This document shows positions 15,882-63,913 of a stretch of 64,000 nt of DNA, one piece after another (the stretch's first letter is position 1; each line of letters begins with the position of its first letter). Origin of the DNA: Candidatus Woesebacteria bacterium (lineage in GTDB: Bacteria > Patescibacteriota > Microgenomatia > UBA8517); assembly GCA_013426185.1 (NCBI GenBank), contig CP058602.1, positions 74,231 through 138,230 on the forward strand. Reading direction: 5' to 3'. Below the pieces are notes generated by a model. It saw only the letters and a program-made list of their open reading frames with translations. It was not told the origin of the DNA and searched no databases. The position numbers and the translations under genes were made by a program.

Positions 15882-16436
15882 ATGGACGAGTCTTCTTTAA
15901 GAACCAAGATGCAGCAGGTTTTTGATTTGGTTGTTTCTGATATTGCTTCAATAAGAATTGGTAGAGCCACGCCTTCTTTGGTTGAAGATTTATCAGTTTT
16001 GGTTTATGGCGGTCAGCAGAAATTAAAGATTCAGGAGTTGGCGACTATTTCGGTTCTTGATCCTCAGACTTTGGAGATTGAGCCTTGGGATAAATCAATA
16101 ATTGGTGAGATAAGGCAAGGAATACTTTCTAGTGGGATTGGCCTTAATCCTGTTATAACCGGTGAAAAAATTAGAATTAATATTCCTCCTTTGACGACCG
16201 AGGATAGAGAAAAGTATTTAAAACTTCTTTCAGCTAAGCTTGAGTCAGGGCGGGTGATGATACGCCAAATCAGGGCAGGTTTTTTGAAAGAGATACAAAA
16301 ATCTTTTGAGGAAAAGGAGATTGGTGAGGATGAGAAGTTCAGAGAGGAAAAAAGATTGCAGGAAATAACTGATGAGTTTGTTGCCAAAATTAACGAGCAG
16401 GGTGAAAGAAAGAAGGAGGAGCTGACTCAGCTTTAG
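15882..16436 (+). CDS. frr: Ribosome recycling factor
   Basis: 184 aa, RRF family similarity. Confidence 0.85.
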   Translation: MDESSLRTKMQQVFDLVVSDIASIRIGRATPSLVEDLSVLVYGGQQKLKIQELATISVLDPQTLEIEPWDKSIIGEIRQGILSSGIGLNPVITGEKIRINIPPLTTEDREKYLKLLSAKLESGRVMIRQIRAGFLKEIQKSFEEKEIGEDEKFREEKRLQEITDEFVAKINEQGERKKEELTQL

Positions 16437-23794: not shown

Positions 23795-24496
23795 TTATTT
23801 CAGATTTTCTTTAAGGTAAGAGATTATTTTGTCTAATTCTCCATCAAGAATCGCTTCAAGATTGCCAAAGGATTTATTTACGCGGTGATCAGTGATCCTA
23901 TCTTGGGGAAAGTTGTAGGTTCTAATCTTTTCTGCTCTTTTGCCTTGGCCGATAGGGGAGCGGTAGCCTGCTATTTCTCTCATTTTTCTTTCTTCTTCGC
24001 GTTCCCAGAGCTTTGAACGCAAGATAGAAAGAGCAATTTGGCGGTTTTGTTCTTGAAAGCGTTCTTGTGAAGCTGTAACAACAATTCCTGTAGGTTTGTG
24101 AATAAGTCTTACTGCAGTTGAAACTTTGTTTACGTTCTGGCCTCCGTGCCCACCTGCTCTAAAAAATTGAATTTCGAGATCTTGGGGGTTAACTGTGATT
24201 TCATTTTCCTTAATTTCGGGCAAAACAGCAACTGTAGCAGTTGATGTATGAATTCTACCTCTTTTTTCTGTCTTGGGAATTCTTTGTACGCGGTGAACCC
24301 CGCTTTCGTTTTTAAGATTATCAAAAGCATTGGGCCCGCTTATGACAAGGGTATTATCATCAACAAGACTTACTCTCCATCCCTTTTTGGTGGCGTAGCG
24401 CAAATACATTCTCAAAAGCTCAGAAGCCCATATTTTAGCCTCGTCTCCGCCTGCCGCACCTCGAGTTTCAAGATAGACTTTTTGGTTGGGAAGCAT
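23795..24496 (-). CDS. prfA: Peptide chain release factor 1, N-terminally short (lacks domain 1)
   Basis: GGQ motif, P-K-T (PxT) decoding tripeptide; only 233 aa, starts at the domain-2 region. Confidence 0.75.
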
Positions 24497-24514
24497 ATTT
24501 TTGGCTTGGGGAAT

Positions 24515-24817
24515 TTAGCGCAATTCGCTCAATGTTTCAGGTTTTTCTAGTTCTTGCCGTATTCTTTTTTCTCTTTTAAGCCTTCTTTTTTCAGCCTTGG
24601 AGATGACTTTTTCTTTAGCCTTGGATTGTTTGCTTAAGAATGCTTCCACTCGACCTGCCGTATCAATATACTTCATTTGACCTGTGTAAAAAGGATGGCA
24701 GGCGGAGCAAATCTCAACATTGATTTCGGGTACTGTGGCACCAGTGGTAAAAATGTTACCGCAAGCGCAAGTTACTTTTGCTTCAGGATACCATGTTGGG
24801 TGAATTCCCTTTTTCAT
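24515..24817 (-). CDS. rpmE: 50S ribosomal protein L31 with ~30-aa Lys-rich C-terminal extension
   Basis: CxxC...CSxCHPFYTG zinc ribbon. Confidence 0.85.
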
Positions 24818-24839
24818 AGCCTGTCAATTATAACAAGTG

Positions 24840-25281
24840 ATATTTAGGATAGCAAGACGGCTATCAGACATCGGCTATCGGTCGTCAGACGTCGGATATT
24901 GGGATTTAGTCGGAGTTGGTCGAAGTTGATCGAAAGATTGTATCTAGTATTTTGTATTATGTATTATGCAGGAAATACAAGTAGAAAGTAGTAAGTAGTA
25001 AGTAGAAAGCATTAATAAATAGTTAAAAGTTAAAAGAATTCGGATTTCAGCTATCAGCCGTCAGCTGTTGGAGTTCTTTGTTATTTTAATTCCTAAATCC
25101 TAAATCAAAATTCTATAATCTATAATCCAAAATCTATAATCTAATTAGAAAGTTTTGACTTTTGAGTTTTGAATTATATTTTTGACTTTTGATTTTTAAG
25201 TTTTGAGTTAATTTGTTAACTGTTAATTGTTATATTGTAATTTTATTCAATAATCTATAATCTAGAATCTATAATCTAACA
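24840..25281. repeat. mosaic intergenic repeat copy R5 (plus; near-complete octamer/heptamer/AT-array order)
   Basis: module sharing; inverted partner at 26188-26627. Confidence 0.9.
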
Positions 25282-26187
25282 ATGTTCTCAAAACCAAGAA
25301 TCAAAGCATATCTTTATCTTACGCTTGTCGCTTTCATCTGGGGATTGGCAGGACCTGTTATTAAATACACTCTAGGCGGCATCTCGTCCTTACCCTTTCT
25401 CACTTACCGCTTTGCTATATCCTCAATAGTGGCTTTAATCAGCTTTAATTTCATAGCCAAAAGAAAGCTTAACACTAAAGAATGGTTTATTGTCATTATC
25501 TACAGTCTTTTTGCCTCAACCTTTTCCCTTTACTTTCTCTTTATCGGCCTTGAAAAGACGACGATGCTTGACACTGCTTTAATCACTACTTTCAATCCAC
25601 TTCTAATTGCAGTAGCTGGATTTTTAGTCTTCAAAGACAAAATAACCTCAAGAGAAAAAGTTGGCATTGCGCTTGCACTTATAGGAACGGTAATTGCCAT
25701 TATTCAGCCGTTAATTGAAAATGAGAATAGTATACGCCTTCAAGGAAATATCTATGTGGTTTTGTATCTTCTGACAAATACAATTGCCGCTATTTTGGCC
25801 AAAAAACTAACCAAACTTGATATTGCCCCGCTTTTTATAACCAACTTTTCATTCATTATCGGATTTTTAAGTCTTTTGCCTCTTTCCATCTATCAAAATG
25901 TAAATCTTATCTCCATAATTTCCCATCTTGAGCTAAGATACCATCTAGGTGTTTTGTTTATGGCCTTAATTTCGGGAAATCTAGCTTATACCCTTTGGGT
26001 AAAAGGACAGAAAAGTATTGAAATAAGCGAAGCTTCTCTTTTCTCTTATCTACAGCCCATATTCTCTACCCCACTTGCAATACTTTGGCTTAAAGAAGAA
26101 ACTAGCAAAACCTTCTTTCTTGGGGCGCTTTTCATCATCATCGGAGTTATTATCGCTGAGACAAAGAAGAGAAGAATTACAGACTAG
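25282..26187 (+). CDS. EamA/DMT-family transporter
   Basis: 10 TM, duplicated EamA domains. Confidence 0.75.
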   Translation: MFSKPRIKAYLYLTLVAFIWGLAGPVIKYTLGGISSLPFLTYRFAISSIVALISFNFIAKRKLNTKEWFIVIIYSLFASTFSLYFLFIGLEKTTMLDTALITTFNPLLIAVAGFLVFKDKITSREKVGIALALIGTVIAIIQPLIENENSIRLQGNIYVVLYLLTNTIAAILAKKLTKLDIAPLFITNFSFIIGFLSLLPLSIYQNVNLISIISHLELRYHLGVLFMALISGNLAYTLWVKGQKSIEISEASLFSYLQPIFSTPLAILWLKEETSKTFFLGALFIIIGVIIAETKKRRITD

Positions 26188-26627
26188 AGAACAGAGATTA
26201 GAGAATAAAATTCTAAATGACAAATTAACTCAAAACTTAAAAATCAAAAGTCAAAAATATAATTCAAAACTCAAAAGTCAAAACTTTCTAATTAGATTAT
26301 AGATTTTGGATTATAGATTATAGAATTTTGATTTAGGATTTAGGAATTAAAATAACAAAGAACTCCAACAGCTGACGGCTGATAGCTAAAATCCGAATTC
26401 TTTTAACTTTTACCTCTTGCCTTTTACCTACTAGGTTAGAACATAGAACAGAGAACAAAGGGGAAAAGTTTTGAACTTAGTATTATGAATTAAGGGGATA
26501 ACGCATTTTCCTGCATAATACATAATACAAAATACTAAATACAATCTTCCGGCCGGCTCCGACTAGCTCCGACAACCAATATTCGATGTCCGATGTCTGA
26601 TATCCGATGTCTGACGTCAGCTGCTTT
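26188..26627. repeat. mosaic intergenic repeat copy R6 (minus; approximate reverse complement of R5)
   Basis: module sharing. Confidence 0.9.
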
Positions 26628-51088: not shown

Positions 51089-51450
51089 ATAAATTACAAA
51101 TTACAAATCACAAATTACAATATACAGATTCTAAATTCTAATATCTAAATTCTAAATCCTGAACCAGAATAAATTCGGTTCAGGGCAGGCAAATTACAAA
51201 TTACAAACAAAAAATTCCAACTTTTAACTTTTAACTTTGAACTTTTAACTATTTATTAATTTTGCTTTCTACTTACTACGTTCTACTTTCTACTTATATT
51301 TCCTGCATAATACATAATACAAGATACTAGATACAATCTTTCGGTCGGCTTCGACTGAATTCCGATAGCCGACAACTGAAGTCTCACAGCTGATAGCCGA
51401 TCTCCGATATCTGACATCCGATCTCCGAATTCCTCTTGCCACTTTTGGAA
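51089..51450. repeat. mosaic intergenic repeat copy R14 (minus)
   Basis: module sharing. Confidence 0.9.
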
Positions 51451-51471
51451 AAATGGGTTAAATTATTATTG

Positions 51472-53235
51472 ATGACAACTTCTGCTCAAATATCAACTAA
51501 AGCTAATCAGATTAATAATCAGGATGCTACTCTATCGCTTACTTTGGCTGATATCTTAGTGAAGCAAGGGTCAATAACCGAGGATAAAGCTAAGGAGATC
51601 AAGTTAGCTGAAATTCAGACTGGCAAAAACCAAGAGGCAATTGTTAAGTCTTTAGGAATAGTTTCGCCTGCAGATCTAGCTAAAGCGAAAGCTGCCTTGT
51701 TTAATATTCCTTTTATAGATTTGGCTAATGCTCCTGTTTCTCCTGAAGCTATGGCAATTTTGCCCAAGGAAATTGCTGAAAGATTTAAGGTCTTTCCTCT
51801 TTCTATTGATAAAGTCTCCAAGACATTGGATTTAGCGATGGCTGATCCTCTTGATCTTTTTGCTATTGAATTTGTTGAGCAGAAAACTAATCTTCGGGTT
51901 AGACTATATGCTTGTGATGAAGCTAAACTTGAGGAATTTATCACTGTTCGTTATGCCACTTCTCTTTCAAAAGAAGTAACGGAAGCTTTGAAAGATGTAG
52001 CTCCTGAAGTCAAGGAGGGTGCAAATGGAATAGCAGGAACTAAAGTCGGTTTTATTAAGGACGAAAAGATAGCAGAGATTGTGACCCAAATTCTTGATTT
52101 TGCTGTTCGAGCTAGAGCTTCTGATATTCATATAGAACCTCAAGAAAAATCAACTAGGGTTCGTTACAGAATTGATGGAATACTACAGGAGAAATTGACG
52201 ATACCTAAGGCTTTGCACAAAGCTCTTGTCTCAAGGATTAAGATCCTTTCTGGATTGAAGATAGACGAGAAAAGGGTGCCTCAGGATGGTAGGTTTAATT
52301 TTATGGGGGCTTCTGAAGATGTTGATTTGCGTATCTCTACTTTACCTACAGCTTGGGGAGAAAAGGTGGTTATGAGGCTTCTTAAAAAAACTGGTGGGGT
52401 ACCAGAACTACCAGAACTTGGTTTAAGGGGTCTTGCTCTTAAAAATTTGGAAACGGCAATACTTAGGCCTCATGGCATTATTATTATTTGTGGTCCTACT
52501 GGTTCTGGTAAAACTACCACTCTTTACTCTATTATTTCAAAAATTAATACCCCTAAAGTTAATATTGTTACTTTGGAGGACCCGATTGAGTATAAGATTC
52601 CTGGAGTTAATCAGGTGCAGGTTAATCCAGCTGCTGGTTTGACTTTTGCTTCTGGTTTGAGAGCTTTTTTGCGGCAAGACCCGAATATTATTCTAGTTGG
52701 TGAGATTCGTGACCGCGAGACTGCTGATTTGGCTATTCAAGCGTCTTTAACAGGTCATCTTGTCTTTTCTACCTTGCATACTAATGATGCGTCAGGAGCT
52801 TTTCCTCGTCTTTTGGATATGGGTGCTGAGCCTTATCTTTTGGCTTCTTCTATGACGGCTATTTTAGCCCAGAGGGTGGTCAGGAAAATTCACGAGGATT
52901 GTAAAGAAGAATATACCCCTGACCCAAAGGTGATTGAGGATATGAAAAATGTTTTAGGCCCTCTTTGGAATAAAGGTGAAGGAGAAGTTAAACTTTATCA
53001 TGGTACTGGTGATCCTGAATGTGGAGGGTCAGGGTACTATGGTAGAATTGGTATTTTTGAGGTAATGCCTGTTTCTGAAAAAATCAGTCGACTTATTTTG
53101 GAGCATAAGTCTGCTAGCGATATTGAGAAGGTGGCGCGTGAAGAAGGGATGATAACCATGAAGCAGGATGGCTATCTGAAGGTTCTTGAGGGAATTACTA
53201 CCATAGAAGAAGTCTTAAGGGTAGCCCAAGACTAA
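51472..53235 (+). CDS. pilB: Type IV pilus assembly ATPase PilB/GspE
   Basis: T2SSE_N domain, Walker A GPTGSGKTTT, C4 Cys; listed ORF begins with TTG at 51436 inside the repeat, ATG at 51472 preferred. Confidence 0.85.
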   Translation: MTTSAQISTKANQINNQDATLSLTLADILVKQGSITEDKAKEIKLAEIQTGKNQEAIVKSLGIVSPADLAKAKAALFNIPFIDLANAPVSPEAMAILPKEIAERFKVFPLSIDKVSKTLDLAMADPLDLFAIEFVEQKTNLRVRLYACDEAKLEEFITVRYATSLSKEVTEALKDVAPEVKEGANGIAGTKVGFIKDEKIAEIVTQILDFAVRARASDIHIEPQEKSTRVRYRIDGILQEKLTIPKALHKALVSRIKILSGLKIDEKRVPQDGRFNFMGASEDVDLRISTLPTAWGEKVVMRLLKKTGGVPELPELGLRGLALKNLETAILRPHGIIIICGPTGSGKTTTLYSIISKINTPKVNIVTLEDPIEYKIPGVNQVQVNPAAGLTFASGLRAFLRQDPNIILVGEIRDRETADLAIQASLTGHLVFSTLHTNDASGAFPRLLDMGAEPYLLASSMTAILAQRVVRKIHEDCKEEYTPDPKVIEDMKNVLGPLWNKGEGEVKLYHGTGDPECGGSGYYGRIGIFEVMPVSEKISRLILEHKSASDIEKVAREEGMITMKQDGYLKVLEGITTIEEVLRVAQD

Positions 53236-53282
53236 TTGTTTTTTTCTTTTGTATGGTGTAATCTGAATTAAATTACTGCCCT

Positions 53283-54347
53283 ATGCTTGATGTAATACAA
53301 CTTTTAAATCTAGCGGTTGAGAAGAAAGCTTCTGATTTGCATCTGATTGTAGGTGTTCCTCCTTACTTGCGTATCGATGGCCAGCTTTTGCCTGTGAATG
53401 AAGAACCTGTTGTTACCAGTGAGTTTATTGAAAAAGTAGCTACTACCGTTTTGAAACCTGAGCAATATGAGCGCTTTAAAGTTAATCGTGATCTTGATTT
53501 CTCTTTTTTTCTTTCTGATGTCGCTCGTTTTAGGGTTAATGCCTATTTTCAAAAAGGCAATTATTCTTTTTCTTTTCATGTTATTCCTTCTCAGATTTTG
53601 ACAGTAGAAGAATTAGGATTGCCTGAAGTTCTTCATTCTTTCACTCATCTAAGACAAGGATTTGTTTTGATAACCGGCCCTACTGGCCATGGAAAGTCTA
53701 CAACTTTAGCATCAATGCTCAACGAGATTAATAAAAATAGGAGCGAGCATATAGTGACTATTGAAGATCCAATTGAGTTTGTTATTCCACCAGTCAAATC
53801 TATCATCTCCCAAAGAGAAGTTGGTTTTGATACTCATTCTTGGCAGATAGCTCTTCGCTCTGTTTTAAGGGAAGATCCCGATGTGGTGATGATTGGTGAG
53901 ATGCGCGACTTGGAAACCATTTCTGCTGCTTTGACTGTGGCAGAAACAGGACATTTAGTTTTTGCTACTCTTCATACCAATTCAGCTTCTCAAACTATTG
54001 ATAGAATAGTTGATGTCTTTCCTGAAAATCAGCAAGGGCAAGTTAGGCTTCAACTCTCAAATACTCTAGAAGGAGTTTTCTCCATGCGTTTGGTTCCTGC
54101 TATAGGAGGAGGAAGAGTTGTTGCCTATGAACTTATGCTTGGAACACCAGCGGTTAGATCTGTAGTCCGTGATGGTAAAACTCATCTTCTAGATAATATC
54201 ATCCAAACTTCGCAAGAATTTGGCATGTCAACTTTAGAGATGTCTTTAGCTGAATTGGTAAAAACAGGAAAGATTTCTTTTGAGGTAGCTCAATCTTATT
54301 CCCTTAGAGTTGAAGAATTATCTCGTCTTGTTAAAGGTGAAAGTTAA
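53283..54347 (+). CDS. pilT: Twitching-motility retraction ATPase PilT
   Basis: Walker A GPTGHGKSTT, 354 aa. Confidence 0.85.
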   Translation: MLDVIQLLNLAVEKKASDLHLIVGVPPYLRIDGQLLPVNEEPVVTSEFIEKVATTVLKPEQYERFKVNRDLDFSFFLSDVARFRVNAYFQKGNYSFSFHVIPSQILTVEELGLPEVLHSFTHLRQGFVLITGPTGHGKSTTLASMLNEINKNRSEHIVTIEDPIEFVIPPVKSIISQREVGFDTHSWQIALRSVLREDPDVVMIGEMRDLETISAALTVAETGHLVFATLHTNSASQTIDRIVDVFPENQQGQVRLQLSNTLEGVFSMRLVPAIGGGRVVAYELMLGTPAVRSVVRDGKTHLLDNIIQTSQEFGMSTLEMSLAELVKTGKISFEVAQSYSLRVEELSRLVKGES

Positions 54348-54353
54348 AAAGCA

Positions 54354-55565
54354 ATGATGAGGTTTAACTTCAAAGCTAAGGATAAAAAAGGAAGATTAGT
54401 TGCAGGTTTGGTTGAAGCTAATGATGAAAAACATGCGGCATCTTTGGTTCGGGAAAAGGAATTGATTTTACTTTCTCTATCTCCTCAAAGGAAAGACAAC
54501 CTAAGTGTTATCATCAACAAATTTAAAAACAGGATTAAAGAGGATGATGTTTCTACTTTTACTCGTCAGCTAGCGACGATGGTCAACGCAGGATTGCCAA
54601 TTACTGAATTTTTGTTGATTTTGAAAAATCAGGCGCGAGGGGCAGCGCTTAAGGAGATGCTAAGCCAAATCTTGGCTGATGTCCAAGAGGGTCAATCGCT
54701 TTCTAGCGCAATAGGTAAGTATCCAAATGTCTTTTCCCCGACTTATATTGCCTTGTTGAAAGCGGGTGAAGCGGGAGGGGTTTTGGATAATGTTTTATCC
54801 CGTCTTTCTGATAATATGGAAAAGCAAGTTGAATTTAAAGGCAAGGTGAAAGGTGCGCTTATTTACCCTGTGATAGTTGTTATTGGAATGGTTTTGGTGG
54901 CAGCTATAATGATGATTTTTGTCATTCCCAAAATGCTAAGCCTTTATTCTGAGTTTGGAGCTGAGCTTCCGGGACCAACGAAAATTTTGATGTCTGTTTC
55001 CGGTTTTTTTGCTAAGTTTTGGTGGCTGATGTTAATCATAATTGCTTTTTTGATCAATTTCTTGATCACTTATCGCAAGACGAAAACCGGTAGAAGAAAA
55101 ATTGATGAGCTGATTTTGAAGATTCCGATCTTTGGCGACTTGCAGAGACAGGTGGCATTGACAGAATTAACAAGAACTTTGAGTCTCTTGGTTGGCGCTG
55201 GCGTTTCTATTCTTGAAGCTTTAGGAATTTTGTCGCAAATTTCAGGAAATGCTGTTATTGGTGATGCTCTTGAAGATAGTGCTAAACAGGTTGAAAAAGG
55301 TTTCCCTTTAGCCTACGCTTTTTCAAAACATCCCGAAGCTTTTCCTTATATTCTTTCTCAAATGGTGGCAGTGGGAGAAGAGACTGGGAAAATGAGCGAA
55401 GTTTTGGCTAAGGTTAGTCATGTCTTTGAGGTTGAATCGGATCAGAAAGTCAAGGCTTTGACTTCAGCTATCGAGCCGATTGTAATGGTGGTTTTGGGTG
55501 TTGGTGTTGGTTTCTTGGTCATCGCTGTTATTTTGCCGATTTATAATTTGACTAGCCAATTTTAG
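54354..55565 (+). CDS. pilC: Type IV pilus platform protein PilC/GspF
   Basis: two GspF domains, 3 TM, 403 aa. Confidence 0.85.
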   Translation: MMRFNFKAKDKKGRLVAGLVEANDEKHAASLVREKELILLSLSPQRKDNLSVIINKFKNRIKEDDVSTFTRQLATMVNAGLPITEFLLILKNQARGAALKEMLSQILADVQEGQSLSSAIGKYPNVFSPTYIALLKAGEAGGVLDNVLSRLSDNMEKQVEFKGKVKGALIYPVIVVIGMVLVAAIMMIFVIPKMLSLYSEFGAELPGPTKILMSVSGFFAKFWWLMLIIIAFLINFLITYRKTKTGRRKIDELILKIPIFGDLQRQVALTELTRTLSLLVGAGVSILEALGILSQISGNAVIGDALEDSAKQVEKGFPLAYAFSKHPEAFPYILSQMVAVGEETGKMSEVLAKVSHVFEVESDQKVKALTSAIEPIVMVVLGVGVGFLVIAVILPIYNLTSQF

Positions 55566-55617
55566 TTTAGAATTGGGTCTTGACAAAATTTTTCTAATTG
55601 TTTAAATTGAAACTAGT

Positions 55618-56178
55618 ATGAAATTATCTGCCAAAGGCTTCACCTTAATAGAGCTTCTCATAGTCATCGCGGTTTTGGGCATTCTGGCAGTTACTGTTCT
55701 TGCTGCTATTAATCCAATAGAACAGATTAATAGATTTCGTGATACTGGCTCTAGGTCCGATGCAGAGCAATTGATTGGAGCTATTGATAGGTTTTATGCC
55801 TCAAGAGGTTATTATCCGTGGCAGACGGTTGCTGGTACCGCTGGCGCTGCTGTTGCTTGGACGCAAGTCACTACAGCATGGTCGGGAGCTGCCACCACTT
55901 CCGTTTTGAGCCAATTATCTGCAGCAGGTACGAAGGAAATCAAGCAATCTTTTGTTAGTAGGATTACTGCACCTAACTATAATCCTTTATGGATCTATAA
56001 TAGAGGGCAGGCTGGTGACAGTTATTATATCTGTTTTTCACCTCAGTCTAGTTCCTTTAGAACAGAGGCTAACACAAGGTGTGCTAATACCTCTGGATCT
56101 GGTTTGCCAGTTGATTTGAGACCTATAGCAGGTACTGTATGCGGTAACACAATATCTCCATACTCTTGTCTTCCATAA
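55618..56178 (+). CDS. Type IV pilin (probable major pilin)
   Basis: class III signal KG|FTLIELLIVIAVLGILA, Glu+5. Confidence 0.8.
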   Translation: MKLSAKGFTLIELLIVIAVLGILAVTVLAAINPIEQINRFRDTGSRSDAEQLIGAIDRFYASRGYYPWQTVAGTAGAAVAWTQVTTAWSGAATTSVLSQLSAAGTKEIKQSFVSRITAPNYNPLWIYNRGQAGDSYYICFSPQSSSFRTEANTRCANTSGSGLPVDLRPIAGTVCGNTISPYSCLP

Positions 56179-56191
56179 TCTGTTATTTTCT

Positions 56192-57871
56192 ATGAGCTTG
56201 CTCAAGCAAAAAGCAAGTTTTTTGGTTTCAAAGCTTGGTAGTAGTTTTTTTTTGCTTTCTCTGGTTTTGATCTTGTCCTTTGTTTTTTACAGAATCTCGA
56301 TTAGATTTGAATATGTAAATCTAGATGATACTCTTTTGGTAAAGTATCGCCTTCTTTATATATTTAACCCCGCTAATATAATTAATTCTTTTAAAAGTAA
56401 TGTTATGTATCTTTCTGACAGTACCGCTTTTTATTATCGTCCGGTTCTTACAATATCTTTTATTTTAGATGCTTTAATTTTTAAAGATAATTTTTGGGGT
56501 TACCATCTAACTAACATACTGCTTCATCTTGTCTCTGTTGTTTTGTTCTATAGACTTATGCTTCGTCTTCGATTAGAAAAATATGTTTGTTTTTTTCTCA
56601 CACTAGTTTTTGCTCTTCATCCTGTTTTAATGCAGACTATAGTTTGGGTTCCTGGGAGAAATGACAGTCTTCTTTTTATTTTTTTGATTTCGGCTCTCTT
56701 TTATTTTTTGAATTATCTTGAATCATCTAGTCTGAAGGATTTTATCTTTTTTGTCTTTTTTACCTTTCTTGCGGTCTTTGTGAAAGAAACGGCAATAATG
56801 TTTTTGCCTGTCTTATTTCTTTTTATTTTTTTGGTTAGAAGAGACAAAAAAGCTTTTAAGAGATCTTTACCTCTTTTGGGCGTGTTTTTTTTAATGTTTG
56901 CCTTGTGGTACCTAATGGCTACTTCTTTTAGTGATAAGCAAGGTAGTTACTGGAGTTATCTGACAAGTACTAACTGGTTTGATGCTATACCAAAAACTAT
57001 AATACCGGGTTATCTGATCTATTTAGGCAAGATCTTTTATCCTTTTGCTCTCTCCGTCTTTCCTGTAGTCGATCTTCGAGATGCTAATATCTTTCCTGGT
57101 ATTGTAGCTTTTATCCTTCTTGTTTTTTCATTTTTATTTTTTGTTAAAGAGGGTAGAAAAAAGGTTTTTATTTTTGGTTTATTATGGTTTTTTATACTCC
57201 TTTTTCCAACTTTTATCAATCTTATGCCTGGAGAGCCGAATATAATTTACGAGCACAGACTCTATTTGCCCATTGTGGGTCTTCTAATTTCTTTTTCCCA
57301 GATCGAGTTTGTTAAAAGATCTCTCTCTAATAGTAAGGTGGCGTTTTTTTTATCTTTGATTATTACCCTTGTTTTTTTCTATGGTAATAGAAGGCATATA
57401 TTTAATTTCAAAGATAGCCTTTCTTTTTGGGAAAGTGCTTATTCCACTTCTTCTAAGCATTTTGTAACGGAAGTGGGCCTTTCGGGTGTTTATCTGTCTC
57501 GAGGTGATCTTGATAAGGCAGAGCCGGTCTTTAAGAAATTAGATGAGATAAAGCCAAATACGATAATATCACATTTGGGTTATGCTTCTTTGTTTTATCA
57601 TAAAGGGGAATATGAGAAGTCTTTGCAAGAGTTAGATGAGGTTTTGAAGATTAATCCGAAATTACCAAGAGCAATGCAATATATAGCATCAATCAAAGAA
57701 CATCAGGGTAAATATGATGAGGCTGAGAAATATTATCTTGAGGCTGTTGAGATTGATGACAAAAATGTAGATCTTTTAATGTCTTTGGTTTCCTTTTATG
57801 TTAAAAGGGGTAAAATTGATAAAGCTAAAGAAGTGTATAAAAAAGTTCAGGATATGGGAATTTCCTTTTGA
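56192..57871 (+). CDS. polytopic membrane protein (~12 TM) with C-terminal TPR repeats; GT-C/PMT-like candidate glycosyltransferase
   Basis: TM-rich N-terminal 400 aa + TPR block; located between pilin and pilD. Confidence 0.5.
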   Translation: MSLLKQKASFLVSKLGSSFFLLSLVLILSFVFYRISIRFEYVNLDDTLLVKYRLLYIFNPANIINSFKSNVMYLSDSTAFYYRPVLTISFILDALIFKDNFWGYHLTNILLHLVSVVLFYRLMLRLRLEKYVCFFLTLVFALHPVLMQTIVWVPGRNDSLLFIFLISALFYFLNYLESSSLKDFIFFVFFTFLAVFVKETAIMFLPVLFLFIFLVRRDKKAFKRSLPLLGVFFLMFALWYLMATSFSDKQGSYWSYLTSTNWFDAIPKTIIPGYLIYLGKIFYPFALSVFPVVDLRDANIFPGIVAFILLVFSFLFFVKEGRKKVFIFGLLWFFILLFPTFINLMPGEPNIIYEHRLYLPIVGLLISFSQIEFVKRSLSNSKVAFFLSLIITLVFFYGNRRHIFNFKDSLSFWESAYSTSSKHFVTEVGLSGVYLSRGDLDKAEPVFKKLDEIKPNTIISHLGYASLFYHKGEYEKSLQELDEVLKINPKLPRAMQYIASIKEHQGKYDEAEKYYLEAVEIDDKNVDLLMSLVSFYVKRGKIDKAKEVYKKVQDMGISF

Positions 57872-58677
57872 AAGAAATGATTTTACTTATTATTTTTATT
57901 CTTGGTTTAATTTTTGGTTCTTTTGTTTCGGCTGTTACCTATCGCCTTCCAAAAGGAATTTCTTTTATTTCAGGTCGGTCTTTTTGTCCTAATTGTAAGC
58001 ACAATATTTCTTGGTACGACAATATTCCTCTTTTTTCTTTTTTGCTTCTTCGCGGCCGTTGCCGGTATTGTGGCAAAAAAATTTCTTGGCGCTATCCCCT
58101 ACTTGAGCTAATAACAGGATTGGGGTTTGTTTTGATTTATTTGTCTTATCTCTCCTGTCTTGGACAAGGTCCGACCCTGTCCAGTAATTTTTTTTGCAGT
58201 CAGGCTGGAAGAATGGGATTTTTTACCCTTCCCTATTGGTTCTTCACTTTTATCTTGCTTCTTGTTGTTTTTGTCATAGATTTTGAACATAAAGTTGTCT
58301 TTGACAGCTTGGTCTTTATTCTTTTTATTTTTTTTCTTGCCACTTCCCTTTTCTTTTCGGATAGCACTTTGTATCTCAACTTGTTGGTAGCTTTTTCTAT
58401 TTCATTATTTTTCTTATTTTTGCATCTTTTTACCTCTGGTCGGGGTATGGGGCTTGGGGATGTTAAATTAGCCTTGCCTCTTGGTTTTTATCTTGGATTT
58501 CCTCTTAGTTTGGTTTGGCTTTTTCTTTCTTTCTTGACTGGAGCAGCAGTTGGAATTATATTGATATTATTGGGCAGGGCTAAATTTGGAAAGCCGATTC
58601 CATTTGGTCCTTTTATGATCTTTTCTTTTTGGGTGGTGTTATTTTTAGGCGAAAGAATAATTTTTTTCTTAAGATGA
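57868..58677 (+). CDS. pilD: Prepilin peptidase (A24 family)
   Basis: N-term CxxC...CxxC zinc motif, DiS_P_DiS + peptidase A24 TM core. Confidence 0.85.
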   Translation: MKEMILLIIFILGLIFGSFVSAVTYRLPKGISFISGRSFCPNCKHNISWYDNIPLFSFLLLRGRCRYCGKKISWRYPLLELITGLGFVLIYLSYLSCLGQGPTLSSNFFCSQAGRMGFFTLPYWFFTFILLLVVFVIDFEHKVVFDSLVFILFIFFLATSLFFSDSTLYLNLLVAFSISLFFLFLHLFTSGRGMGLGDVKLALPLGFYLGFPLSLVWLFLSFLTGAAVGIILILLGRAKFGKPIPFGPFMIFSFWVVLFLGERIIFFLR

Positions 58678-59324
58678 AAAGAAAAAGTGCTTTTACTTTA
58701 ATTGAGCTTTTGGTTGTGGTTGCTTTTTTGTCTTTGATGGTTTTGGTGGCTATTTTTGCTTTTAAAGGACCCTTGTTTAAGGGTTATGATGCGAGGAGAA
58801 AGTCAGATCTCAATAGGATTAAAATAGCTCTTGAAGAATATGAGAAAGATCATAATTGTTACCCTCCTTATTTGCCTTCTTGCAAGGGTTCAGATGCTGG
58901 TATTTTAAAATCATATATACCCATTATCCCTTATGATCCTCATACTAAAACTGATTATCTTTATTATCCTGATCCTACATCAACTTGTGCTAAATGGGCT
59001 TGGCTTTTTACCAATCTAGAATATACTGGTGATCCGAAAATTACAGAAATCGGTTGTCAAAACGGCTGTGGACCAAATCAAGCTTATGGTTTTAATTATT
59101 ATGTGACTACTCCTGGTGCTCCTGATCCTTTTAAGTCTGGTAGCGCCAATGTCCCCCCTGATGTCAGTGGTAATTATTATGGTTGTTTTTCTGGGGTTTG
59201 CCAACCAATAGGAGTTAACTCAGATACTCATCTACCAGTCTGTCAACCTAATTTTACTAGTTCTGATTGTCGTAACTTATGTCAAGACGAATCTGGTCCC
59301 ATAAACGAATGCAACTCTTACTAA
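58674..59324 (+). CDS. Type IV pilin-like protein, Cys-rich C-terminus
   Basis: SAFTLIELLVVVAF prepilin motif; listed ORF start 58629 overlaps pilD, ATG 58674 preferred. Confidence 0.75.
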   Translation: MKRKSAFTLIELLVVVAFLSLMVLVAIFAFKGPLFKGYDARRKSDLNRIKIALEEYEKDHNCYPPYLPSCKGSDAGILKSYIPIIPYDPHTKTDYLYYPDPTSTCAKWAWLFTNLEYTGDPKITEIGCQNGCGPNQAYGFNYYVTTPGAPDPFKSGSANVPPDVSGNYYGCFSGVCQPIGVNSDTHLPVCQPNFTSSDCRNLCQDESGPINECNSY

Positions 59325-59881
59325 GCTTAAAAAAAGATTTTTGGAAATTGTTTTTTTTGTTTTTTTTGGTTTCTCTAGCTTCTGCTTTGGGTTTTAATGA
59401 ATCTGACAAAAGAGAAAGAGATGTCAGAAGGAATGAAGATATTAGTAATATTGCCAAGGCAATAGAAGCTTACAGGCAGGCTTTTGGCTATTATCCTGAA
59501 TCAAAAGATGGAAAAATAGTAGCTTGCGCGGGTAATGATACCAAAGTTTTAAGGGATAAAAATGTTCTTGGAATAAGAGAAAAAGGAGCTAGCCGAGATA
59601 AACTGGTTGGTCTTGCTCCTTGTGAGTGGGGTCAAGATCCTCTAAGAGATGTTTCAGATGGTAATTACCCTGCTTTTTTAGACAAACTTCCTCAAGATCC
59701 AGAGTCTAGTCGTGGTTTTAGCTACCGCTACGATTTTGAAAACGGTCGTTACTTTGTTTATGTAGCTTACGAGACAAAAAGAATGCCTGACTATAGCAAG
59801 AATGTATTAAACAAAAAAGTTGCTTGTGGATACAAATTTTGTAATGGAGCTCGTACAAATGGCATTGAAATAGTCAAATAA
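59279..59881 (+). CDS. pilin-paralog-like protein lacking canonical prepilin cleavage motif
   Basis: hydrophobic segment then RDVRRNEDISNIAKAIEAYRQAFGYYP resembling neighbouring pilins. Confidence 0.5.
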   Translation: MSRRIWSHKRMQLLLSLKKDFWKLFFLFFLVSLASALGFNESDKRERDVRRNEDISNIAKAIEAYRQAFGYYPESKDGKIVACAGNDTKVLRDKNVLGIREKGASRDKLVGLAPCEWGQDPLRDVSDGNYPAFLDKLPQDPESSRGFSYRYDFENGRYFVYVAYETKRMPDYSKNVLNKKVACGYKFCNGARTNGIEIVK

Positions 59882-59903
59882 TGATGTTAATATGAATTAG
59901 ATT

Positions 59904-60467
59904 ATGCATAGCCTGCCTTATCAAGAAAGAAAATCTCCAGCTTTTACTTTAATTGAGCTTCTGGTTTCAATAACTATTTTAGGGATATTAGCCGTTGTTG
60001 TTTTGGGTGGTTTTAGATCGTCACAGATGAGATCGCGTGATGCAAAAAGGAAATCTGATTTAAAGCAAATTGCCAATGCTTTGGAGATGTTTTATTCAGA
60101 TAAGGGGTTTTATCCGCCTTCAACAGCTGATGGCAGAATTAGAGCTTGCCCTTACTATGCACCTCCCGATACTCCAATAGTTTGTAATTGGGGATCCATT
60201 GATTACACTAGCGAGTTTAAAGATGCTAGTAGCGGAGTGATCTACTTCAAATCACTTCCCAAAGATCCTTCGGGATTTTCTTATTATTATCGTTTAACCA
60301 ACGATGGCAAGGGATTTCAACTTTATGCACACCTGGAAAATGATCAAGATCAGAATTGCATTGATTCAAATTGCTCTATGGTGTCTGGGCTTCCTAGCGG
60401 TGTTAGTTGTTCTGGGGTTTGCAATTTTGCTATTACCAGTGCAAATGTCACAGCAAAAACTAATTAG
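59904..60467 (+). CDS. Type IV pilin-like protein
   Basis: PAFTLIELLVSITILGILA; RDAKRKSDLKQIANALEMFY. Confidence 0.8.
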   Translation: MHSLPYQERKSPAFTLIELLVSITILGILAVVVLGGFRSSQMRSRDAKRKSDLKQIANALEMFYSDKGFYPPSTADGRIRACPYYAPPDTPIVCNWGSIDYTSEFKDASSGVIYFKSLPKDPSGFSYYYRLTNDGKGFQLYAHLENDQDQNCIDSNCSMVSGLPSGVSCSGVCNFAITSANVTAKTN

Positions 60468-60476
60468 TATAATAAT

Positions 60477-60965
60477 ATGAGAAAAAGAAGCGGTTTAGGT
60501 TTTACCCTGATCGAGCTTTTGGTAGTTATTTCTATTATTGGAATTTTGGCAACATTGCTTTTGGCAAATTACAGCGCGACTCGTGAGAGAGCAAGAGATG
60601 CGCAAAGAAAGTCTGACTTAAGAAACATCCAGACAGCTTTGAGAATGTTTTATAATGATTTTAATAGATATCCTAGTTCCAGCAGTGGGCAGATAGTTGG
60701 TTGCGGGACCAGTGGTAATACTGTCTGCGGTTGGGGTGGAACTTTTTCGGCAGGTTCAACCAATGTTGTCTATATGAATATTCTTCCTAAAGATCCGCAG
60801 AGTAATAGGAGCTACAATTATGTCGCTGCAGGTGGTGAGTATACTCTTTCTGCGTGTTTAGAAAACAAGGGTGATGATAAATGCAAAAAGGATGCTAGTG
60901 GTAATTTGGTTTCTTGCTCTTGGATGTCAGGGGTTGATGGTTGTGTTTATGAGGTCAAGCCGTGA
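60477..60965 (+). CDS. Type IV pilin-like protein
   Basis: LGFTLIELLVVISIIGILA; RDAQRKSDLRNIQTAL. Confidence 0.8.
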   Translation: MRKRSGLGFTLIELLVVISIIGILATLLLANYSATRERARDAQRKSDLRNIQTALRMFYNDFNRYPSSSSGQIVGCGTSGNTVCGWGGTFSAGSTNVVYMNILPKDPQSNRSYNYVAAGGEYTLSACLENKGDDKCKKDASGNLVSCSWMSGVDGCVYEVKP

Positions 60966-61419
60966 TATGCTAGTATCAAGTATCACGAAGCAAGTGTCAG
61001 GAATAGGTAAAAGGCAAGAGGTAAAAGAATTCGGACATCAGACATCGGCCGTTGGCTGTCGGATGTTAGAACTTAGTCGAATCTAGCCGGAAGCTAGTAT
61101 TTAGTATTTGGTATTTTGTATTATGTATTATGGGGATAATGCATTTTCTTGCATAATACATAATTCATAATACTAAGTTCAGTGTTCCTAATCTGTTTGT
61201 AATTTGTTTATTGGTATTTGTATATTGTTTGTATATTGGAATTTGTGATTTGTAATTTTTGTTTAGGATTTAGATATTAGAAATTAGAATTTAGAATTTG
61301 TAGTTTGGTTTGCTGGTTCTTGAATGTAGTAAGTAGAAAAGTATTGTGATTTTTAAAAGTTTTGGCTAGACTTATTTTAGTTGGTTGTTGAGGTTTGGAA
61401 GTTGCTAGTTGTGTTTACA
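60966..61419. repeat. mosaic intergenic repeat copy R15 (plus) inside the pilin array
   Basis: module sharing. Confidence 0.9.
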
Positions 61420-61887
61420 ATGAAAATTAATAACAAAAAAAATTACAAAATGATTGGTTTTACCTTAATTGAACTTTTGGTAGTTATTGCTATTATTGGT
61501 ATTCTTGCTTCCTTAGCCTTGGTTTCCTATACTCGCTCGCAAAAACAGGCAAGAGACACAAGAAGGAAGTCAGATTTGAAACAGTATCAAGTTGCTTTGG
61601 AAAATTATGCTAATCAGAATAATGGTATATATCCTGTTAAAACGACTACTTTTCAAGCTGTTAGTTTTTGCAATTCTGGCCAAGCACTTTATGGGCTTTC
61701 TTGTCCAGACGATCCTGACGCTACAAGACATTATAATTATCTAAGTCTGAGCGACGGTTCTGAATATGCGCTTTGGGCTCAACTTGAGGCTTATCAAACT
61801 GGACAGTATTGGGTTGTTTGCTCAAGTGGTAAAAGCGGAGAAAGTACTACTCAGCCTTCAACTAGTAGTATTTGTCCGGTTCCATAA
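61420..61887 (+). CDS. Type IV pilin-like protein
   Basis: MIGFTLIELLVVIAIIGILA; RDTRRKSDLKQYQVAL. Confidence 0.8.
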   Translation: MKINNKKNYKMIGFTLIELLVVIAIIGILASLALVSYTRSQKQARDTRRKSDLKQYQVALENYANQNNGIYPVKTTTFQAVSFCNSGQALYGLSCPDDPDATRHYNYLSLSDGSEYALWAQLEAYQTGQYWVVCSSGKSGESTTQPSTSSICPVP

Positions 61888-61889
61888 TT

Positions 61890-62339
61890 ATGGTCTTATT
61901 TGATAACAAACATCTTAATGAAAAGTATCTTAAGGGTTTTACTTTAATTGAGCTTTTGGTGGTTATTTCTATTATTGGGATTTTGATTTCCCTTTCCCTT
62001 TTTGGAATTCAAAATTCGCGAAAGAGCGCAAGAGATGCTAAGCGCAAATCAGACCTTGAATCCATACGCTCTGCGCTTGAGATGTATAAAGCGGATAATG
62101 GCAGATATCCGTCTACTAGTTCTGGTATGAATGCTTCATCCCTCGCTATTTCAAGCTACATTTCTTCTGTTCCCACGGATCCTATTAGTGGAAGAATTTA
62201 TGTATATCGTTGCACTAATGTTAGTGGGTCTAATTGTCTTGCTTATGATTTATGTGCAGCTCTTGAGACAGGAAGCGGTTCCATATCGTGCGGCATAAGT
62301 TGTGGGGTAAGTTGTAATTATAAGACAACAAATCCTTGA
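61890..62339 (+). CDS. Type IV pilin-like protein
   Basis: KGFTLIELLVVISIIGIL; RDAKRKSDLESIRSALEMY; ATG 61890 preferred to TTG 61872. Confidence 0.75.
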   Translation: MVLFDNKHLNEKYLKGFTLIELLVVISIIGILISLSLFGIQNSRKSARDAKRKSDLESIRSALEMYKADNGRYPSTSSGMNASSLAISSYISSVPTDPISGRIYVYRCTNVSGSNCLAYDLCAALETGSGSISCGISCGVSCNYKTTNP

Positions 62340-62350
62340 AAAATGTTTTT

Positions 62351-62956
62351 ATGGAATTAAAAACTGCCTTTAAAAATCGAGGTTTTACTTTAATCGAACT
62401 CCTTGTTTTCCTTCTTGTTGTTTTCATCTTAGTTGGTCTTGGTTACGCCAACTTTCGTAAGTACGCTCAAAAACAGGCTTTATGGGCCGTGGCAAGGCAA
62501 ATAGAAGGCGACCTCCACCTTGCTCAAAGTTATGCAATGTCTGGTAAGGATGCATCAAGTTGTATTTCTGGAACCTACCTTTATGGTTATCAACTTTTTA
62601 AGCTTAGCGATCGTTCTTATAGTATTCGCCGTGTTTGCCGTAGCCCACAAGGTACCTTTATTTATAGCGATGTGTCTCCTTATCGTTATATACCAGAAGG
62701 ATTTGAGATAGATAGAAACTTCTCTTTAGTTTCGTTTCGATCAGTTGTTGGTGGAGTTGATAGCCCCGTGTCTATTAATATTAGACGTAATTTAGCACCA
62801 AGTTCTTATATTGTTATAAATGTTTTATCAACAGGGGCGATTTCTTTATCTTATAGTGATGGAGGATCTGCTATATTTCCTACTTCTACACCTACACCAC
62901 CCGGAGATGTGTTACCGCCACCTGGCATACCCATTAGTACGCCCATTTTGTATTAG
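62351..62956 (+). CDS. minor pilin/pseudopilin-like protein with Pro/Thr-rich C-terminus
   Basis: RGFTLIELLVFLLVV; ATG 62351 preferred to TTG 62336. Confidence 0.7.
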   Translation: MELKTAFKNRGFTLIELLVFLLVVFILVGLGYANFRKYAQKQALWAVARQIEGDLHLAQSYAMSGKDASSCISGTYLYGYQLFKLSDRSYSIRRVCRSPQGTFIYSDVSPYRYIPEGFEIDRNFSLVSFRSVVGGVDSPVSINIRRNLAPSSYIVINVLSTGAISLSYSDGGSAIFPTSTPTPPGDVLPPPGIPISTPILY

Positions 62957-62982
62957 TTTGTTCATTTTATAATGAGTGAATT

Positions 62983-63435
62983 ATGAGAAAAAATCTTTTG
63001 AATTCAGGGCAGTCTCTGATCGAGCTTTTGGTGGCTTTGACTTTGATAATGCTTGTAGTTGTGGCGGTTGTCGGTTTAGCGGCCGTTTCTATCAAAACTT
63101 CCTATTTTGCCAAAAGAGAAACAGCTGCCAAAAGATATGTTGAGGAGGCGATGGAATGGTTGAGGGAACAAAAGAAAAGTGATTGGACTGATTTCTTGTT
63201 TACTAAGTCAACTACCACGAGTCAGACGTATTGTTTTAACTTGTCGCCTGTTACTAGCTGGCCAGTGGTTGGTTCTTGTAGCGGCGCGACTTTGGGTGGA
63301 ATTTATAAGCGGGAGGCGACTTTATTAAGGTCGTCTGATAACAAAAATGTAACAGTGACGGTGGTTGTTTCTTGGAGCGATTCATCAGGAACCCATGACA
63401 CAAAATTGGTTTCTGTCTTTACCGCGCCTAATTGA
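62983..63435 (+). CDS. minor pilin/pseudopilin-like protein
   Basis: N-term GQSLIELLVALTLIMLVV. Confidence 0.65.
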   Translation: MRKNLLNSGQSLIELLVALTLIMLVVVAVVGLAAVSIKTSYFAKRETAAKRYVEEAMEWLREQKKSDWTDFLFTKSTTTSQTYCFNLSPVTSWPVVGSCSGATLGGIYKREATLLRSSDNKNVTVTVVVSWSDSSGTHDTKLVSVFTAPN

Positions 63436-63436
63436 T

Positions 63437-63913
63437 ATGTTTAAGAATAATCTGAAGGAAAAGGGATTTACTTTAATCGAGATGCTTGTTGTTATTGCTC
63501 TTTTTGCGGGTCTTGCTGTTTTGGTGGGTAGTATGGTGGGCTCATCCATGAAGGGAACGAAGAAAAGTGAATCGGTGATGAAAGTTAGAGCGGAGCTTGA
63601 AAATGCCGTTTCTATTTTAGAGAGGTCTTTAAGAGAAGCTAAAAAAGATTCGGTTATATGTAATGGCAATAGTACTGTTTCTTTTACTGATCAAAATGGT
63701 TTTAATGTTACTCTCAGTTGCTTGCCCCTTAGTAAGAACAGTGTTGAACTCATTAATAGTTCAAATATAAACTTAACAGCTTGTAACTTTGATTGCACTA
63801 ATCTCTCGAAAGGTGTTGTAGTTATAACTCTTACTGGCAGTAGTGCAAGTTCTAGTGGTGTTGAGGCTGACATTGCTACTGTTTCGGCGAGGGTTGTTTT
63901 AAGAAATTACTAG
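63437..63913 (+). CDS. minor pilin/pseudopilin-like protein
   Basis: KGFTLIEMLVVIALFAGLA; ATG 63437 preferred to overlapping 63365 start. Confidence 0.7.
   Translation: MFKNNLKEKGFTLIEMLVVIALFAGLAVLVGSMVGSSMKGTKKSESVMKVRAELENAVSILERSLREAKKDSVICNGNSTVSFTDQNGFNVTLSCLPLSKNSVELINSSNINLTACNFDCTNLSKGVVVITLTGSSASSSGVEADIATVSARVVLRNY

Follow-up and report, generated by a model that had tools for sequence, protein, structure and literature searches.

The RF1 gene described here lies on the minus strand of the window, i.e. the whole 64-kb stretch of DNA that was analysed, between rpmE, which encodes ribosomal protein bL31, and a gene coding for an HtrA-like protease. The coordinates of the gene, of its decoding and catalytic codons and of the other features discussed in the text are collected in Table 1.

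Table 1. Positions of the RF1 gene, its functional codons and further features of the window
Feature	Position	Strand	Remarks
RF1 gene, most likely prfA orthologue, 233 aa	23795-24496	minus	Domains 2, 3 and 4 only; ATG at 24494-24496, stop codon TAA at 23795-23797
Codons of the PxT 'tripeptide anticodon', P74-K75-T76	24269-24277	minus	P and T invariant in the family, x variable
Codons of the catalytic GGQ, G118-G119-Q120	24137-24145	minus	Invariant
Spacer from rpmE stop codon to RF1 ATG, 18 nt	24497-24514	minus	Too small for domain 1; no promoter-like site
rpmE, bL31, 100 aa	24515-24817	minus	Pfam Ribosomal_L31, 1.9e-27; conserved upstream neighbour of prfA
K/R/E-rich C-terminal tail of bL31, ~35 aa	24515-24620	minus	C-terminal third of rpmE
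Promoter-like site TTGCTA-17-TATAAT, extended -10	24827-24855	minus	Just upstream of rpmE; consensus match only
EamA-family transporter gene	25282-26187
Inverted repeat, 199 nt	25018-25216 / 26220-26418		98% complementary; brackets the EamA gene
Further imperfect repeat arms	24909-24975 / 26507-26573		Outside the 199-nt repeat
EF-Ts gene, 148 aa	15334-15780	plus	Adjoins rpsB, upstream of frr
RRF gene	15882-16436
GyrA gene, 878 aa	41000-43636	minus
Type IV pilus gene cluster	51436-63913	plus

Since the spacer between rpmE and the RF1 gene contains no promoter-like site, the two genes are probably co-transcribed, and the site just upstream of rpmE is a candidate promoter for an rpmE-prfA operon. 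The first in-frame stop codon 5' of the RF1 ORF is the TAA of rpmE itself (24515-24517), located six codons before the ATG, and the ORF can therefore not be extended in frame. The other two upstream frames consist of short, stop-ridden segments only. The first-pass annotation, made from the sequence alone, had given exactly this distance between the two genes and had regarded an in-frame upstream extension as fatal to its reading of a truncated RF1; such an extension is excluded by the rpmE stop codon.

Tails similar to that of bL31 were found in many Patescibacteria, whatever the length of RF1, which is consistent with the reported enlargement of bL31 in CPR bacteria generally (PMC9297842). 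The shared reading frame of rpmE and prfA, separated by the TAA and six codons, prompted the idea that the tail is a captured remnant of RF1 domain 1. This idea was rejected, as the same tail is present beside full-length prfA in three CPR loci (L020, L045 and L057); moreover, the frame is not conserved in two loci with a short RF1 (L003 and L004).

Several other features of the window were recorded. The inverted repeat around the EamA gene is made of short AT-rich units with a 7/14-nt periodicity. Relative to rpmE-prfA, the EamA gene is oriented opposite to its orthologue in the closed genome AP024680.1 (GCA_025999275.1; 785,860 bp; locus L001), where only weak repeats of 49-55 nt are present, and other assemblies of the organism break at the repeat. 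The repeat could delimit an invertible segment, reflect a past inversion or correspond to an assembly ambiguity. In EF-Ts, only positions 1-76 of the 204 positions of the Pfam EF_TS model were matched, at residues 73-147, and the protein appears to be another truncated translation factor of the same genome. For GyrA, the match to the Pfam DNA_topoisoIV model is split in two, suggesting that its catalytic domain contains an insertion. The pilus cluster encodes PilB-like and PilT-like ATPases, PilC, a prepilin peptidase and at least six pilin-like proteins with N-terminal methylation motifs; such long type IV pilus clusters are characteristic of CPR bacteria living as episymbionts.

Domain composition and decoding residues

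The domain composition of the protein was analysed with profile models and structural homologues. The RF-1 domain of Pfam (PF00472, 1.8e-37) was matched as a whole, while the PCRF domain (PF03462, 1.4e-33) was matched over model positions 100-194 of 194 only. The NCBIfam prfA models aligned from model position 104 or 112 to the end. RF1 chains of the PDB aligned over all 233 aa, namely residues 86-322 of Thermotoga maritima (E 4e-76; 49% identity from residue 86 onward), 107-340 of Thermus thermophilus and 109-342 of E. coli. The protein thus begins at the linker that immediately precedes the first strand of domain 2, corresponding to about residue 105 of E. coli RF1, and domain 1 (~105 aa) is missing. 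The alignment with bacterial prfA proposed at first pass has borne out the start of the ORF at the domain-2 region: domains 2-4 match end to end and domain 1 is absent.

The scores obtained with the prfA models (315.3 bits for NF001859 with a cut-off of 400; 310.7 bits for TIGR00019 with a cut-off of 423.25) both remained below the equivalog cut-offs, a shortfall that corresponds to the missing domain 1. The prfB model TIGR00020 gave 223 bits, which is below the prfA scores and below its own cut-off of 370, and the tripeptide is PKT and not the SPF of RF2.

The P-K-T and GGQ motifs reported in the first-pass annotation were recovered at the residues given in Table 1. Alignments of 17 and 43 sequences, comprising short, intermediate and full-length RF1s, identified as invariant the residues G16, G17 and E19 of the alpha-5 tip, Q71, P74, T76, the H83-T84-S85-T86 stretch, GGQ and the RTYNxP segment. 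Position x of PxT is free (K, T, V, I, A, S, E or Q), as it is in ordinary RF1s. The short RF1 family is further characterised by a 10-residue deletion in a beta-hairpin of domain 2 and by a tryptophan (W23) in place of the usual phenylalanine after the alpha-5 tip. Some positions of the window protein are RF2-like, i.e. W23 and the LLRMY motif.

An AlphaFold model computed from the 43-sequence alignment (pLDDT 83.4, pTM 0.77) was compared with known structures using Foldseek. It resembled both the free compact RF1 1rq0_A (TMq 0.81, 2.9 A) and the pre-accommodated ribosome-bound RF1 6orl_A (TMq 0.83, TMt 0.79). Taken over domains 2-4, the protein is homologous end to end to canonical RF1 (T. 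maritima 1RQ0, E. coli 2B3T, T. thermophilus 4V63), with 42-49% identity. It shares with these proteins PxT, GGQ, the alpha-5 tip, the His/Thr decoding residues, the position after rpmE and the predicted compact fold. In contrast, it has neither the helical domain 1 nor the 10 residues deleted from the domain-2 hairpin, displays some RF2-like positions and falls below the prfA cut-offs.

Probable orthology and integrity of the gene

The genomic context of RF1 was compared across a genome scan of at least 80 RF1 loci, among the matches listed and with taxon labels as given by the depositors. In Patescibacteria, Cyanobacteria, Chloroflexota, Planctomycetota and other phyla, rpmE precedes prfA on the same strand, in total at 37 of 80 RF1 loci listed by the scan, to which L001 and L002 are to be added. 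The distance from the L31 stop codon to the start of domain 2 amounts to 320-490 nt where domain 1 is full, to 165-290 nt where it is partial (L009, L017, L016, L006, L035), and to 14-90 nt where it is absent or vestigial (18 nt in the window and in L001, 25 in L003, 14 in L004, 48 in L005, 61 in L025 and 90 in L022). As rpmE adjoins the gene and the spacing tracks the length of domain 1, the short RF1 gene occupies the ancestral prfA slot. It is thus most likely orthologous to prfA rather than a paralogue serving in rescue, a conclusion that the locus comparison strongly supports, if short of proof. Taken together, it is highly probable that the gene encodes the housekeeping RF1 of a CPR bacterium of the Microgenomates/Woesebacteria type, in a natural form devoid of the whole of domain 1.

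A different reading would make the protein an accessory paralogue, i.e. a rescue or specialised factor such as PrfH or ArfB, in a genome encoding a full-length RF1 elsewhere. The absence of domain 1 in PrfH (PMC1586002, PMC6514570) and the failure of the window protein to reach the prfA equivalog cut-off both speak for it. Indeed, the RtcB-linked PrfH naturally consists of a domain 2/4-like unit and the GGQ domain. However, its codon-recognition loop is altered or shortened and its gene is paired with rtcB, whereas the window protein keeps the canonical PxT loop with all decoding residues and is encoded at the conserved rpmE-prfA locus, not beside rtcB. With the prfH model TIGR03072, only the GGQ domain aligned (68.7 bits, cut-off 166.65), and with the ArfB model NF006718 only residues 98-133 did (52.3 bits, cut-off 100), against 315 bits obtained with prfA. 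The rescue factors ArfB, ICT1 and C12orf65 have the GGQ domain in common with the window protein; they are devoid of domains 2/4 and rely on a basic tail at the C-terminus, whereas the window protein possesses the complete decoding domains but not this kind of tail. As a weaker argument, no second RF1 locus was found for any of the eight assemblies with a domain-1-less RF1, among the loci listed. A paralogue is consequently improbable, including the ArfB-like factor which the first-pass annotation had put forward as a possible refutation.

The housekeeping RF1 could also be a split protein, with domain 1 produced from a separate small ORF elsewhere and acting in trans. Domain 1 is a flexibly attached and separately folding helical unit (PMC1586002), and the window covers 64 kb of a genome of ~0.8 Mb. 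In order to search for such an ORF, an HMM was built from 53 full-length domain-1 sequences, which detected domain 1 in the positive controls L057 and L020 with E-values of 3e-25 and 6e-20, respectively. At E<=10, the HMM matched nothing in the window (six frames, segments of at least 30 aa), nor in the sequence flanking ten further loci in which domain 1 is strongly reduced or absent (up to 10 kb per side, or less where the contig ended earlier). Together with the stop-ridden upstream frames, this agrees with the earlier observation that no other frame in the spacer or in rpmE encodes the missing domain. Relatives display a progressive N-terminal shortening instead of a split, and a separate domain 1 is thus very unlikely. 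Searches with phmmer using RF1 and RF2 queries revealed a single release factor gene in the 64-kb window and no RF2, as had been noted at first pass.

The integrity of the truncated gene was evaluated from independent assemblies and from homologues. Six contigs, taken from NCBI (GCA_020725745.1), from Logan runs and from a JGI metagenome, encode an identical 233-aa protein, and L31 is located upstream on all contigs that extend that far. The best 120 homologues among 5.8 billion proteins are all 228-264 aa long, and those labelled with an organism belong to Candidatus Woesebacteria or Patescibacteria; the longer ones carry extra low-complexity residues rich in N, Q, Y and S and no domain-1 helices. 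In AP024680.1, the genome of a congener, the homologue is 89% identical, and L31 (100 aa), RF1 (233 aa) and the protease are arranged as in the window. The short gene is also carried by contigs of 0.78-0.92 Mb, on which P0005, P0055 and P0074 are encoded. The comparison of both genes (dN 0.078, dS 1.47, dN/dS ~0.05) indicates strong purifying selection. All these results support the first-pass view of a genuine truncation, as opposed to a frameshift, and the comparison with related genomes that it had recommended reveals a short RF1 across the lineage, shared by this ultrasmall bacterium with thousands of relatives. Breaks in other assemblies are located a few hundred bases upstream, where repeats are abundant. 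Nevertheless, an artefact of assembly, sequencing or start-codon choice, or a pseudogene in decay, is hardly conceivable in view of the rpmE stop codon six codons before the ATG, the identical sequence in independent assemblies, hundreds of homologues of equal length, the low dN/dS and the confident and complete structure model.

Erosion of domain 1, stop codons and RF2

In a search of 1.84 billion cluster representatives, the RF1s near the query were mostly 330-370 aa long. Representatives without domain 1 (P0123, 235 aa; P0124, 256 aa; P0126, 232 aa) were accompanied by forms retaining about 28 (P0135), about 50 (P0129, P0130) or about 70-75 (P0122, P0127) residues of it. It is the C-terminal helices of domain 1 with which these partial forms align, suggesting that the gene was eroded stepwise from its 5' end. 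In two further representatives, P0121 (477 aa) and P0125 (481 aa), part of domain 2 and the GGQ-domain region is duplicated in tandem within the protein; the repeat of ~110-120 residues is verbatim or nearly so and is probably an assembly artefact.

Among the loci listed, a stop codon is located at most 18 codons upstream of domain 2 in L003, L004, L005, L007, L010, L008, L021 and L081. L004 is labelled as Gottesmanbacteria, L021 as Saccharibacteria, and L003, L007, L008 and L081 as Patescibacteria group only. When the domain 2-4 core was used for a rough neighbour-joining tree, the RF1s without domain 1 fell into two separate clusters, each with sister sequences containing a partial domain 1. 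The deletion in the domain-2 hairpin is found in the cluster that includes the window protein, and the other cluster does not have it. Tentatively, at least two independent complete losses of domain 1 appear to have occurred in Patescibacteria, as judged from a simple distance tree and from the loci among the matches listed.

The usage of stop codons was determined under table 11 for the 61 ORFs of at least 100 aa in the window, of which 30 end with TAA, 24 with TAG and 7 with TGA; the long housekeeping ORFs are intact. In related loci with a domain-1-less RF1, TAG and TGA end 19% and 22% of the ORFs, respectively. The use of TAG as a stop codon implies that RF1 activity is needed, and that of TGA implies that an RF2 is necessarily encoded beyond the window. 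The idea of a recoded genome that dispenses with RF2 was rejected on the basis of the TGA counts in the window and in related loci and of the intact long ORFs. From the ORF coordinates, four of the seven TGA stop codons of the window appear to overlap the start codon of the next gene. Stop codon usage in the window is unusually rich in TAG, similarly to the closest genome (7 of 19 in L001) and differently from the other short-RF1 loci. A link between short RF1 and TAG usage was rejected, as no consistent trend was seen across locus groups.

No RF2 was detected in the flanks of the 82 RF1 loci listed. An RF2 of Woesebacteria was found neither with a synthetic RF2-motif alignment searched against viral and metagenome contigs nor with protein searches seeded with CPR RF2. 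The latter reached only RF2s of the Berkelbacteria type and of unlabelled Patescibacteria (298-332 aa). All of the 80 metagenomic RF2 loci listed keep domain 1. CPR RF2 (Berkelbacteria type, ~300-330 aa) follows the same trend of N-terminal reduction of class-I factors in Patescibacteria; it keeps ~65-95 residues of domain 1 in all RF2s sampled, whereas the window RF1 keeps none, and complete loss was seen for RF1 only.

Berkelbacteria-type RF2s of CPR are encoded in L162 (3706-4720; JGI contig Ga0315298_1004641) and represented by the proteins P0271-P0293 and P0405-P0523. In L162, the RF2 gene follows recR-cysS; both recR and cysS are present in the window, with no prfB after them. Two observations were made on viral contigs. 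An ORF starting at ~2944 of L091 (IMG/VR IMGVR_UViG_3300025687_004659) encodes an RF2-like protein of 182 aa, in which domain 2 is joined directly to domain 4 and the GGQ domain is lacking. Several large low-GC viral contigs (L095-L105) encode full-length RF2 homologues without the SPF tripeptide.

Proposed termination without domain 1

The conserved residues and the predicted fold allow a termination pathway to be proposed for the 233-aa RF1. The protein would bind to the A site in its compact form, where the alpha-5 tip (GGxE) would read U1, while PxT, Q71, H83 and T84 would read positions 2 and 3 of the stop codon. Subsequent opening would place GGQ in the peptidyl-transferase centre in the same way as in canonical RF1, leading to hydrolysis of the peptidyl-tRNA and thus to termination at UAA and UAG as usual. 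Without domain 1, docking on the L11 stalk base and recycling by RF3 would not take place, and the factor would leave the ribosome spontaneously or via RRF, which is encoded in the window, and EF-G.

Domain 1 had been described in the first-pass annotation as contacting RF3 and the L7/L12 stalk; the former holds, while the contact is made with the L11 stalk base and not with L7/L12 itself. To our knowledge, the only well-defined roles of domain 1 are the coupling to RF3 and this L11-stalk contact. We are aware of essentially no studied bacterium that does not keep domain 1 in RF1 and RF2, RF3-less and highly reduced genomes included. The RF3-less Mycoplasma and Bacillus keep the domain, so that the loss of RF3 alone does not explain why it was discarded here.

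The engineered E. coli RF1 and RF2 without domain 1 (Mora, Zavialov, Ehrenberg & Buckingham 2003, via PMC1586002) have the same architecture of domains 2-4 and are, by analogy, the closest functional precedent for the window RF1. According to the summary given in PMC1586002, these truncated factors kept release activity and codon specificity and lost the interaction with RF3 and its stimulation (Mora et al. 2003; Vestergaard et al. 2005), and the truncated RF1 works in vivo. They differ from the window RF1 in being laboratory constructs in a host that has RF3, whereas the window RF1 arose naturally, is maintained by selection and has become fixed in large lineages of CPR bacteria. The natural deletion agrees with the tolerance to domain-1 loss that the constructs had predicted.

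Of 191 bacterial genomes, 72 lack RF3, small genomes in particular; RF3-less bacteria include Mycoplasma and Bacillus, and a weaker binding of the class-I factor has been proposed as compensation (PMC1780047). Given that the truncated E. coli factors do not stimulate RF3 and that RF3 is often missing in small genomes, the absence of prfC in the lineage is predicted, along with factor turnover that is spontaneous or driven by RRF and EF-G. A broader and more speculative proposal, which we consider possible with somewhat less than even confidence, is that of an asymmetric termination cycle. Domain 1 of RF1 would have been lost repeatedly in Patescibacteria while RF2 keeps a shortened one; RF1 would function without contact to the L11 stalk and RF3, its turnover being ensured by intrinsically weak binding or by RRF/EF-G. 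The whole arrangement would be a co-adaptation to the reduced ribosome of CPR bacteria.

No account of a housekeeping RF1 devoid of domain 1 in CPR bacteria was found in the literature on release factor evolution and CPR ribosomes, the coverage of which was incomplete, so that an earlier mention is possible. While the dispensability of domain 1 in laboratory E. coli is already known, a natural, lineage-wide RF1 without this domain does not seem to have been described. Some NCBI records label the short RF1 as 'hypothetical protein' or 'PCRF domain-containing protein'. TIGR00019 belongs to the bacterial marker set of GTDB (PMC12281837). As the short RF1 scores below the cut-offs of TIGR00019 and NF001859, this marker could be missed or only partially aligned in short-RF1 lineages.

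With the short RF1, translation termination joins the ribosome-associated functions that are simplified in CPR bacteria. A large natural clade that terminates at UAA and UAG with a domain-1-less RF1, as its decoding and catalytic residues lead us to expect, would confirm that domain 1 is dispensable in vivo, and the clade would offer a natural system for RF3-independent turnover of release factors. If true, the asymmetric cycle of RF1 and RF2 would represent a natural test of the purpose of domain 1.
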